Below, piece after piece: positions 28,542 to 28,976 of a stretch of 35,336 bases of DNA. The stretch comes from a virus. Below the pieces are notes generated by a model. The model did not search any database. It saw only the letters and a list, made by a program, of their open reading frames with translations, and was not told where the DNA came from. Location: the UHGV virus genome UHGV-0373725, one strand, 5' to 3'. Each line of letters starts with the position of its first letter. The stretch's first letter is position 1. A program made the position numbers and the translations under genes.

Positions 28542-28976
28542 CTAGTTACACGAACTAACAGTAACTGCATTGAAGAATGTTCCGGAGGGGTAGGTGTAAA
28601 CATATTGCATCTCCCCACCTAATCTAATGAATGAACCCAGTGGATTTTTATTCGTGCATAACCCATTTTTTGTTATTTCATCCATTCGAGATTTAGCAAC
28701 GTCGATTGAAGTATGGGTCTCTGAAGCGGTAGCCAGCATTTCTTCTTCGGTTACGCCTAGCCTTACCTGCGCGATTATTTTGTTTCCATCAGCAGAAACA
28801 TCTTTCATTATTACGTTTTCTGATAACGTTAAGGGCAGTCTGGGGCGTACCTGAGTGACGATTTTCTGAGCCTGTTCGCATACATCAAACTCAGTTAAGT
28901 TTGGTTTACACTTATCTGCTGCGAATGCCGGATGTGAGATCATTACTAATATCGAAATTAGACCAATTTTTTTCAT
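28542..28976 (-). CDS. Opposite-strand moron: small secreted or periplasmic protein (144 aa) with signal peptide
   Basis: N-terminus MKKIGLISILVMISHPAFA (signal peptide with AFA-A cleavage-like site); four Cys; AT-rich; convergent with the gp16-like gene with a 4-nt gap; own upstream AT-rich region 28977-29060. Confidence 0.7.
   Translation of the reverse strand: MKKIGLISILVMISHPAFAADKCKPNLTEFDVCEQAQKIVTQVRPRLPLTLSENVIMKDVSADGNKIIAQVRLGVTEEEMLATASETHTSIDVAKSRMDEITKNGLCTNKNPLGSFIRLGGEMQYVYTYPSGTFFNAVTVSSCN

Follow-up and report, generated by a model that had tools for sequence, protein, structure and literature searches.

A predicted periplasmic protein with the PA3611/AspS fold beside the ejection-protein genes of a temperate T7-like prophage, a candidate superinfection-exclusion factor

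What does a single minus-strand gene do among the late genes of a temperate T7-like prophage? The window, which is the whole stretch of 35,336 nucleotides that was analysed (virus genome UHGV-0373725), is such a prophage, and a sequence-only reading had described its gene at 28542-28976 as a lone minus-strand, AT-rich moron for a secreted protein of no assignable family. The isolation of the gene is borne out by a greedy gene map, in which it is the only non-shadow minus-strand ORF from about 5.9 kb to 35 kb. Its composition is also as described, with GC 0.405 and GC3 0.379 for the ORF and GC 0.353 for the 153-bp stretch upstream of it (28977-29129), against about 0.55 in the flanks, where GC and GC3 are 0.559 and 0.598 for the gp16-like gene and 0.551 and 0.626 for terL. 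The gp16-like gene is convergent with it and 4 nt separate the two stop codons. The features of the locus are collected in Table 1.

Table 1. Features of the slot gene and its surroundings, in coordinates of the window.
Feature	Position	Strand	Evidence
CDS, PA3611/AspS fold, phrog_8772 family, 144 aa, predicted periplasmic	28542..28976	-	ORF; phrog_8772; AF2; Foldseek; dN/dS
Signal peptide, codons 1-19, MKKIGLISILVMISHPAFA; predicted SPase I cut between AFA and AD	28920..28976	-	Sequence heuristic
Mature domain, 125 aa, 13.7 kDa, pI 5.4	28545..28919	-	AF2 model and sequence
T7 gp16-like ejection protein, 967 aa, without lytic transglycosylase domain	25634..28537	+	phrog_342 E 2.7e-194, profile positions 205-1226
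gp16-like N-terminal residues 1-145, copied in exported P0014, P0016 and P0162; proposed target or partner	25634..26068	+	BLASTP with the C-termini of P0014 (E 2e-14) and P0016 (E 1e-14)
gp15-like ejection protein with SLT lytic transglycosylase domain, 903 aa	22923..25634	+	Pfam SLT 1.2e-9; phrog_1044
113-aa ORF in small-terminase position	29130..29471	+	phrog_9277 (function unknown) only
T7-type terL; right flank of the slot together with the 113-aa ORF	29468..31078	+	
AT-rich 5' region, part of the cassette	28977..29066	-	Alignment of alleles diverges right after conserved CTGACT block
Sigma-70-like site CTGACT, 16 nt, TAAAAT; weak	29045..29072	-	Only such site upstream
Backbone motif AGTCAGGATTCCGACCTC, right-hand cassette border; the window has four such copies on the plus strand	29067..29084	+	
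Conserved hairpin AGCCC...GGGCT with T6 run, abutting the ATG of the ORF in small-terminase position	29101..29129	+	

The ORF starts with ATG and, judged from sequence comparison, is a real gene under purifying selection, because dN/dS between its alleles is 0.09-0.22 and its family counts at least 243 matched cluster representatives at E<=1e-3. The signal peptide that had been proposed for the 144-aa product is supported by a sequence heuristic, which finds a basic n-region, a hydrophobic core of 11 residues with a mean Kyte-Doolittle value of 2.7, and A-x-A at -3/-1 before the mature start ADKC. The same kind of heuristic finds no lipobox at the AFA-ADKC junction and no TM-grade segment in the mature part, and a lipobox-like motif is seen in only 1 of 118 stand-alone family members. 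With a Sec signal peptide and no lipobox, the mature protein should be periplasmic and soluble, so the part of the earlier claim that stands is export, and the product is more likely to be retained in the periplasm than released into the medium. The four cysteines noticed earlier, C23, C33, C107 and C143, do not vary among close homologs and are conserved to at least 90% in the 118 family members; they probably pair as C23/C33 and C107/C143. AspS and PA3611 share a conserved disulfide that ties down the C-terminus (PMC3542185), and C107 and C143 are placed so that they could form it.

A family can now be assigned, since phrog_8772 matches the whole protein (positions 1-144 of 144, E 1e-67), and so can a fold; remote homology and structure prediction had both been suggested as checks. 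Members of the family are roughly 145 aa long, have four cysteines and keep the motif C-x-P-N...D-V/M-C...LP...C...F-I-x-L-G-G...Y-x-Y...C. There is no Pfam model for the family, scans of the protein against Pfam and NCBIfam gave nothing meaningful, and a scan of PADLOC-DB matched 0 defence families; sub-threshold matches to PNISR, DUF6488 and LsoB are noise. Megablast and tblastn against 50,697 phage records did not match the gene, which means that no sequenced isolate of that collection has it, and a profile search of genome contigs with alignment A1 found no relative. At every locus examined, the gene context is a prophage or a defence island; the members in defence islands adjoin Thoeris and RM genes, or ApeA-HEPN and MmeI RM genes. 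Many family members lie outside prophages, the family is widespread in environmental metagenomes, and its hosts include Klebsiella. Some members carry fused modules that were recognised by eye as similar to Sel1, AMIN-like and DUF1311/LprI-like domains. Given the large family and the fusions, the domain may serve as a general binding module of the periplasm, a point against the exclusion role proposed below.

The AF2 model of the protein depends on its input alignment, which with 4 sequences gives an unusable pLDDT of 39 and with 118 sequences a pLDDT of 93.9 and a pTM of 0.82. The order of elements in this model is alpha1, beta1-3, an extra helix, alpha2, alpha3 and beta4-5. Foldseek against the PDB returns 3npd (E 2.6e-7), 4ftf (4.7e-5) and 6i2v (8.6e-5), all with probability 1.00, and the next match has E 0.09; the TM-score against 4ftf and 6i2v is about 0.68-0.70, target-normalised. 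The confident model thus gives the protein the fold of the AspS/EpsS pilotins and of PA3611. Foldseek against BFVD found nothing at E<=1e-3, and a profile search of PDB sequences with alignment A2 did not match 3npd at E<=10. PA3611 (PDB 3NPD), which is the best structural match, is like the window protein (by prediction) soluble, periplasmic and without a lipobox. It carries an extra helix after beta3 (PMC3542185), a position that fits residues 77-86 of the model. The differences are that no sequence-level similarity to PA3611 was found and that the PA3611 gene is chromosomal.

The function is best indicated by the fusions of the family. In two lineages a Pro-rich linker joins the domain to an exported copy of the N-terminal 105-145 residues of the gp16-like protein, and this copy ends in a TM anchor. 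The C-termini of the two fusion proteins, P0014 and P0016, match the gp16-like N-terminus of the window (Table 1) and also that of their own phages (E 2e-15 and 2e-19, respectively), and the P0016-type fusion, as P0016 or a 98% identical variant, is present on five contigs. A third protein, P0162 of a Providencia prophage, is the sole filler of its slot and has a signal peptide, gp16-like residues 3-104 and a TM helix; its gp16-like part is 61% identical to the gp16-like protein of its own phage (E 1e-39). The gene upstream of P0162 was tested as a split-off PA3611-like domain, and it is not one. Since the domain is found fused to a gp16-like N-terminal copy, superinfection exclusion, which had been listed among several guesses, becomes the best-supported function. 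The window protein itself has no gp16-like segment, so its link to gp16 follows Rosetta-stone and synteny logic. We give even odds (a probability of about 0.5) to the reading that the protein is a periplasmic superinfection-exclusion factor, which would interfere with the assembly of the gp15/gp16 periplasmic tunnel of incoming T7-type podophages.

A related target is offered by the SLT lytic transglycosylase in the incoming gp15-like protein, which a Spackle-like inhibitor would block so that the peptidoglycan is not breached. The protein is small, periplasmic and disulfide-bonded by prediction, and it is encoded beside an SLT-bearing ejection module. Two family members (P0020 and P0048) are fused to modules that resemble DUF1311/LprI lysozyme inhibitors and three (P0067, P0087 and P0088) to an AMIN-like peptidoglycan-binding module, all recognised by eye. 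T4 Sp gives a general precedent. However, the conserved neighbour and fusion partner is not the SLT protein but the gp16-like one, which here lacks that domain, and the significant Foldseek matches in the PDB are PA3611 and the pilotins only, with no lysozyme inhibitor or Spackle among them, so that this inhibitor is unlikely.

The fold itself could instead point to secretins. The pilotin fold clamps the C-terminal helix of the secretin, and the sole significant structural neighbours of the protein are two T2SS pilotins and the soluble PA3611. A secretin-directed factor would bind the C-terminal S-domain of a secretin of the host or a foreign one (T2SS, type IV pilus or filamentous-phage pIV) and alter secretion or piliation, which would change the host phenotype or exclude pilus- or secretin-dependent phages. 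The AspS authors proposed that PA3611 may bind lipoprotein secretins (PMC3542185). PF16549 (T2SSS_2), the model of the AspS/EpsS (GspS-beta) group to which 4ftf and 6i2v belong, does not match the window protein, and 3 of the 118 family members match it weakly (E about 1e-3) and in register. Against E. coli YghG, hhalign gives a probability of 39%, and the alpha2-end cysteine and the 'LPxK' motif align in register. These weak sequence signals agree with the fold match. In contrast to AspS/EpsS, the window protein is no lipoprotein, lies outside any T2SS operon, scores too low for Pfam, carries a further Cys pair at the N-terminal side and has no C-terminal helix alpha4. The missing lipobox and T2SS neighbourhood argue against a secretin as the target, and Klebsiella PulD pairs with an unrelated PulS-type pilotin (PMC3542185). 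Such a target would also leave the linkage to the gp16-like gene and the gp16-like N-terminal fusions unexplained, and it is improbable.

The position of the gene is highly conserved. In 31 of 31 IMG/VR matches, which represent 29 distinct loci, it stands tail to tail with the gp16-like gene, and the same arrangement is found in the genome and metagenome contigs L002, L003, L004-7, L030, L033 and L039/40. In most loci -3 to +5 nt separate the two stop codons, over a range of gp16-like identity from 40 to 100%. Alleles with saturated synonymous divergence are flanked by nearly identical DNA. On these comparisons the slot gene is a long-standing resident whose alleles are swapped as cassettes and not a recent, sporadic insertion. 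The borders of the cassette can be seen in L022, where the slot is empty, only 68 bp lie between the gp16-like gene and the ORF that follows and the AGTCAGGATTCCGACCTC motif comes 2 nt after the gp16-like stop codon. In L001 and L023-L028 the slot is empty or otherwise filled, and the backbone is intact in these as in L022. The gene is dispensable for growth, since close relatives have the slot empty or differently filled. Other cargo of the slot is envelope-directed and includes an Acyl_transf_3 O-acetylase-type gene. The slot proteins TL-2011b gp39, L024/26 and L027 were considered as distant family members, which is unsupported (hhalign probability 0.7%). The E. coli slot protein WP_142890381.1 was considered as a Rap1a/Tai-type immunity protein and has no Pfam or PHROG match; BLAST finds no similarity between it and the window protein.

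The term moron applies to this gene in part. As in the HK97/HK022 morons, it lies between genes that are adjacent in L022, has a deviant GC (0.405 vs 0.55) and stands on the opposite strand, and its slot holds other cargo elsewhere. It differs from them in that the slot is held across deep phage divergence, which is not the pattern of a recent or sporadic insertion, and in that no terminator and no convincing promoter were found. The sigma-70-like site ahead of the gene does not exceed what chance would give (1 seen vs 2.1 expected in shuffles), and no terminator was found between the abutting stop codons of the gene and the gp16-like gene. Beyond the cassette border, the stem of the hairpin carries a compensatory change in L020 (AGCCCTGTA...TACAGGGCT); an Rfam scan of the window found nothing. 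The name 'small terminase' for the next ORF is owed to its position, because the match of this ORF is to phrog_9277 only.

Such deep conservation and tight packing against the late operon are unusual for optional cargo, and, as no convincing lysogenic promoter was found, they would fit a role in the lytic cycle, either as an early periplasmic protein against lysis from without or secondary adsorption or in conditioning the envelope for lysis. This role has a low probability. The relatives with an empty or differently filled slot keep an intact backbone, and the gene runs antisense to the late operon. Several lineages have mnt-like repressor genes that point the same way as the slot gene; in L003, L018/19 and L030 an Arc/Mnt-like gene is found upstream of it on its strand, with an ant-like gene near. 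The slot gene is still intact in a remnant prophage of K. michiganensis from which most structural genes are gone. In TL-2011b, arc and ant are found beside the equivalent slot, which is occupied there by a different protein. A last alternative is a factor that leaves the cell and acts on the host or in virulence, as is reported for P. aeruginosa PA3611, a secreted protein with an effect on bronchial epithelial cells (PMC8860233). It would suit the PA3611-like fold and the Klebsiella hosts and is very improbable, as the profile search of PDB sequences found no sequence relation to PA3611, the family is common in environmental metagenomes and defence islands, no outer-membrane route is evident and the ejection-protein linkage would be left unexplained.

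If the protein is a superinfection-exclusion factor, its mechanism may be outlined as follows. The N-terminal part of T7 gp16 lies in the periplasm and serves as a 'molecular tape' (PMC8954989), and it may be equated with residues 1-145 of the gp16-like protein by PHROG profile coordinates only. The N-terminal part of the ejected gp16 would stay in the periplasm, where in T7 the tape would stitch gp15 into a hexameric tunnel. The PA3611-like protein would bind this gp16 region or the gp15-like partner. Assembly of the periplasmic tunnel would be blocked and the DNA of the superinfecting relative kept out. The membrane-anchored gp16-like copies would be decoys. Expression in the lysogen would come from the AT-rich upstream region, and in relatives with an immI region the gene would be read along with the mnt/arc-like repressor gene. 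In a wider form, to which we give somewhat less than even odds, temperate T7-type podophages would carry, behind their ejection genes, a dedicated exclusion module not described before, with two interchangeable exported parts, the soluble pilotin-fold protein and the anchored mimic of the gp16 'tape', which poison tunnels alone or fused.

The N-terminus is the most variable part of the gp16-like protein among close relatives, with 77-80% identity against 97-100% for the rest, and this speaks for the exclusion reading, as does the presence of family members in defence islands. One and the same slot-gene allele (97-99% identical) occurs beside gp16-like N-termini of either 97-100% or about 78% identity, and an allele of 57% identity goes with a 95% identical gp16-like protein. 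This mosaic pairing rules out a strict co-evolution of the slot-gene allele with the gp16-like N-terminus, so that the pairing is loose and not one-to-one, a point against the exclusion reading.

The closest parallel is SieA of phage P22, in whose annotation gene 16 is followed by a convergent sieA and then by mnt, arc and ant. SieA prevents DNA injection, and phages escape it through mutations in gp16 and gp20 (PMC10883804). The gene described here has the same position and orientation as sieA, convergent directly after the last ejection-protein gene, a mnt/arc/ant immI region adjoins the slot in several relatives, and the outcome proposed, by analogy, is also an injection block. The two proteins differ in that no homology is detectable (hhalign probability 0.1%), SieA spans the inner membrane with three TM segments and has no signal peptide, and the protein here is predicted to be soluble, periplasmic and pilotin-like; the ejection proteins are P22-type there and T7-type here. 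The outline of the sequence-only reading is partly supported: the product is predicted to be exported and is not a virion component, the slot is empty in L022 and otherwise filled in others, and the position and orientation are those of sieA.

Small envelope proteins of phage T4, Sp and Imm, also stop the DNA entry of superinfecting relatives; Sp is periplasmic and targets the virion-borne cell-puncturing component. They share with the window protein a small size, an envelope location and the proposed block of DNA entry. They differ from it in fold, which is unrelated (neither is among the Foldseek matches), and in being expressed by a lytic phage, and the target of Sp is a lysozyme, whereas the target proposed here is the gp16/gp15 tunnel.

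The trans-envelope DNA channel of short-tailed phages and its blocking are described in molecular detail for very few systems, and the targeting of ejection proteins by P22 SieA was reportedly shown only in 2024. If the wider form with two exported parts is true, this would be the first superinfection exclusion through ejection-protein mimicry, and the soluble (PA3611) branch of the pilotin fold would have its first function. A block of tunnel assembly would pinpoint the periplasmic gp16 segment as exposed and vulnerable. The anti-phage repertoire would gain a family of at least 243 clusters, some of them in defence islands, and in phage therapy of Klebsiella and Enterobacter, resident prophages with such genes could exclude therapeutic podophages.

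The window protein, of 144 aa, is encoded in what Pfam and PHROG searches assign to the late region of a temperate T7-like podophage (table), where, on a greedy gene map, no other minus-strand gene is credible from about 5.9 to 35 kb. The protein begins with MKKIGLISILVMISHPAFA/ADKC (the slash marks the predicted cleavage), which by sequence heuristics shows a basic n-region, then a hydrophobic core of 11 residues (mean Kyte-Doolittle 2.7), with A-x-A at positions -3/-1; the same heuristics find neither a lipobox in the protein nor a transmembrane-grade segment in its mature part, which has 125 aa, 13.7 kDa and pI 5.4. 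The cysteines are C23, C33, C107 and C143. GC is 0.405 and GC3 0.379, against 0.559 and 0.598 in the gp16-like gene and 0.551 and 0.626 in terL, and dN/dS between alleles is 0.09-0.22; on this comparison of alleles, the ORF is a real gene under constraint. The observation itself is confirmed: the ORF, its signal peptide, four cysteines and low GC, and its place as the sole minus-strand gene of the late region are as the sequence-only reading described them. That reading also gave the gene its own AT-rich upstream region, which stands (a 153-bp spacer, GC 0.353); for a promoter in it the evidence is at chance level, with one sigma-70-like site (CTGACT-16-TAAAAT) found and 2.1 expected. No terminator was found for the gene.

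Features of the window in and around the late region (SLT, lytic transglycosylase domain)
Feature	Coordinates	Strand	Basis
18-nt motif, first copy	18289-18306	+	
Nozzle protein	19983-21974		Pfam/PHROG
GNAT acetyltransferase	21974-22426	+	Pfam/PHROG
gp14-like protein	between GNAT and gp15-like genes		Pfam/PHROG
gp15-like protein with SLT	22923-25634		Pfam/PHROG
gp16-like protein	25634-28537		phrog_342, E 2.7e-194
Gene under study (CDS, ATG start, 144 codons)	28542-28976	-	ORF reading
Sigma-70-like site	29072-29045		
18-nt motif, second copy	29067-29084	+	
Hairpin with T6 run	29101-29129	+	
113-aa ORF, small-terminase position	29130-29471	+	phrog_9277 only (function unknown)
terL, T7-type	29468-31078		Pfam/PHROG
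18-nt motif, third copy	31000-31017	+	
Tail fibre, T7-type N-terminus	31096-33615	+	Pfam/PHROG
Small ORF, GC 0.424	33624-33892	+	
18-nt motif, fourth copy	33903-33920	+	

The GNAT gene sits within the ejection-gene block, with the nozzle and gp14-like genes on either side, is kept in loci L001 and L033, and its product could be an ejected enzyme. The tail-fibre gene has a GC3 of just 0.358, which is consistent with horizontal exchange; between this gene and the last of the motif copies, the small ORF of lower GC could be the sign of a second cargo slot. The four copies of the 18-nt motif (GGTCGGGATTCCGACCGC twice, AGTCAGGATTCCGACCT(C/T) twice; none expected by chance) have palindromic arms GGTCGG/CCGACC and stand one each upstream of a capsid-like ORF, the small-terminase-position ORF, the tail-fibre gene and the holin region, and the motif also delimits the cassette slot; it may be a late promoter, a processing site or a terminator element. 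The conserved hairpin abuts the ATG of the 113-aa ORF, which has no obvious Shine-Dalgarno sequence except GGGG in the hairpin stem, and a compensatory stem change in locus L020 suggests a functional RNA or terminator structure.

The sequence-only reading could assign no family, a statement superseded by remote homology and structure prediction. phrog_8772 (function unknown) matches the window protein over its full length (E 1e-67); searches of Pfam, NCBIfam and PADLOC gave no match. Four close clusters were all that a word-indexed search found, the nearest being a Klebsiella michiganensis hypothetical protein (98%), and an exhaustive HMM search seeded with them returned 243 cluster representatives at E<=1e-3, 108 at E<=1e-10. 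Most representatives have about 145 aa and a signal peptide; the family motif is C-x-P-N...D-(V/M)-C...L-P...C...F-I-x-L-G-G...Y-x-Y...C, with the four cysteines at least 90% conserved, and one of 118 stand-alone members has a lipobox-like motif. The AF2 model has a pLDDT of 39 with a 4-sequence alignment, and of 93.9 (pTM 0.82) with 118 sequences; its elements run alpha1, three beta-strands, a short helix, alpha2, alpha3 and two beta-strands. Foldseek against the PDB gives three matches at probability 1.00, to PA3611 of P. aeruginosa (3NPD, E 2.6e-7) and the T2SS pilotins AspS (4FTF, E 4.7e-5) and EpsS (6I2V, E 8.6e-5), the next match being at E 0.09. Weak signals agree with this fold: PF16549 is touched by three of the 118 members at about 1e-3, and hhalign places the LPxK motif and the alpha2 cysteine in register with those of E. 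coli YghG/AspS, at a probability of 39%. AspS has a conserved disulfide from the C-terminus to alpha2, and PA3611 is its periplasmic non-lipoprotein homolog, with an extra helix after beta3, an open hydrophobic groove and unknown function (PMC3542185). The modelled window protein agrees with the PA3611 variant and is no pilotin itself, since it lacks a lipobox, a T2SS context and any Pfam score above threshold. A secretin-directed factor, which the pilotin matches bring to mind, is improbable.

The family gene is convergent with the gp16-like gene in every one of 29 distinct IMG/VR loci (31 matches in two scans), with a stop-to-stop gap of -3 to +5 nt in most and of 46, 305 or 1036 nt in a few, and also in the genome and metagenome contigs L002, L003, L004-7, L030, L033 and L039/40. 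Across these loci, identity falls from 100% to about 40% for the gp16-like protein and from 99% to 25% for the family protein. Within the window's own clade, alleles just 52-57% identical lie between flanks 95-98% identical, with a pS of 0.7-0.8; such saturated synonymous divergence between near-identical flanks means that the alleles are old and exchanged as cassettes. The L002 prophage, in K. michiganensis GCA_051412775.1, adjoins yecA and seems to be missing the replication genes and the bulk of the structural ones: 266 bp, holding no structural gene, separate a truncated SLT gene from the first gene of the early region, and the gp16-like gene, the 144-aa gene (98% identical), terminase, tail fibre, lysis genes and a radical-SAM/SPASM gene are kept.

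Other loci show other occupants of the slot. In the related E. coli prophage L001, with flanks about 89% identical in DNA and a gp16-like protein 93% identical, an unrelated minus-strand gene for a 130-aa signal-peptide protein lies between the same two genes. In loci recovered with the gp16-like C-terminus, the slot is empty in L022 (a 68-bp spacer), and holds other small signal-peptide proteins in L023, L024/26 and L027, a multi-TM protein in L025, an Acyl_transf_3 O-acetylase-type gene in L028 and, in the closest phage isolate, TL-2011b (71.5% identity in the gp16-like protein), a 187-aa membrane-anchored protein with arc and ant after it. The cassette is limited exactly by the gp16-like stop codon on one side and by the conserved backbone motif GGTCGGGATTCCGACC or AGTCAGGATTCCGACC on the other. 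On these comparisons, the gene is a dispensable, long-standing slot resident. The moron claim holds as to dispensable cargo of a variable slot; the gene did not insert recently, given the saturated pS and a convergent slot kept down to about 40% gp16-like identity. The uncharacterised slot proteins with a signal peptide or N-terminal anchor include L001:6241-6633 (-) (E. coli 23GD11002, WP_142890381.1), L024/L026:4897-5340 (-), L027:4872-5390 (-) and TL-2011b gp39 (phrog_8033; L032:9027-9590 (-)); three of them share a C-terminal YCA...C pattern, and no homology to the window family was detected in them. The L028 contig, titled Pseudomonas lundensis I31, carries part of this enterobacterial-type prophage (identity 88% in the gp16-like C-terminus, 87% in the 113-aa ORF), and its attribution to Pseudomonas suggests contamination, mis-binning or recent transfer.

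Two family members, P0014 (287 aa) and P0016 (290 aa; found on five contigs, either itself or as a variant with 98% identity), are extended at the C-terminus. In both, encoded in the same convergent slot, the domain is followed by a Pro-rich linker and about 130 residues homologous to gp16-like residues 1 to 105-145, with a hydrophobic helix and basic tail at the end; the extensions match the window gp16-like protein at E 2e-14 and 1e-14 and those of their own phages at E 2e-15 and 2e-19, respectively. A search with the extension alone found P0162 (Providencia sp. PROV118, L061:4453-4941), which consists of a signal peptide, a copy of gp16-like residues 3-104 and a TM helix. Over 102 aligned residues the copy shares 61% identity with its own prophage's gp16-like protein (E 1e-39), with one 33-residue stretch bearing a single difference. 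The gene occupies that slot too, convergent and 2 nt away from the stop codon of the gp16-like gene; P0162 looks like an ejection-protein mimic. The slot is therefore filled in one of three ways. As in the window, the PA3611-like domain can stand by itself; it can be fused to a gp16 N-terminal copy that is exported and anchored; or such a copy can be the sole occupant.

In T7, gp16-N stays in the periplasm after ejection, and gp16 residues 157-228, just past the transglycosylase domain, are the 'molecular tape' that stitches gp15 into a hexameric periplasmic tunnel (PMC8954989). The window gp16-like match begins at phrog_342 profile position 205, so this protein lacks the T7 lytic transglycosylase domain and, from the PHROG profile coordinates, its N-terminus plausibly corresponds to the tape. 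Residues 1-145 (25634-26068) are its most variable part in close relatives (77-80% against 97-100% elsewhere). This N-terminus is mosaic against L002 and L010-L017, at about 78% where the other 820 residues are 97-100%, and L009 shows the opposite pattern (97% in the N-terminus, 69-83% in the rest).

We propose, with a probability of about 0.5, that the window protein is a prophage-encoded, Sec-exported, disulfide-bonded periplasmic protein that blocks tunnel assembly of an incoming phage. Its pilotin-type groove would bind the incoming phage's gp16-like N-terminal region or its gp15-like partner, and binding would block assembly of the periplasmic tunnel and thereby keep DNA from entering; at the same step, the anchored copies of the gp16 N-terminus would serve as decoys. 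Of this, the signals for export, the fold, the synteny, the fusions and the behaviour of the slot are shown; expression in the lysogen, the binding target and an exclusion phenotype are inferred. Two distant members in defence islands fit an anti-phage role: P0007 (L037/L038) lies near radical-SAM, AAA_28, HD, ApeA-HEPN and MmeI-type RM genes, and P0157 in an island with an integrase, close to Thoeris (ThsA/ThsB), type I RM and Fic genes. The exclusion case is weakened by the window protein having no gp16-like segment, by the loose pairing of its alleles with gp16-like N-termini, by promoter evidence at chance level, and by the size of the family, some members of which are fused to Sel1, AMIN-like or DUF1311-like modules (read by eye), suggesting a general binding module. 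A Spackle-like inhibitor, which would act on the SLT domain, is doubtful, and a role in the lytic cycle is unlikely to a similar degree. A released host-interaction factor is the least probable of these readings. The lysogenic-conversion interpretation is supported in outline and is now more specific, short of proof.

Systems that exclude superinfecting phages at the DNA-entry step are already known, as in P22 SieA, T4 Imm and T4 Sp. The P22 annotation has the order gene 16, convergent sieA 22 nt on, orf59a, mnt, arc, ant and gene 9, which matches the slot here in placing a convergent gene right after an ejection-protein gene; an Arc/Mnt-type repressor gene also lies upstream of the family gene, in the same orientation, in L003, L018/19 and L030. 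P22 SieA itself has no sequence relation to the present family. The collection of 50,697 GenBank-derived phage records has no match to the gene by megablast or tblastn, and a full-text literature search found no paper on the family or on a periplasmic pilotin-fold exclusion factor. If the proposal is true, superinfection exclusion would have a new form here, one that combines a soluble pilotin-fold protein and exported proteins mimicking an ejection protein of the phage itself.
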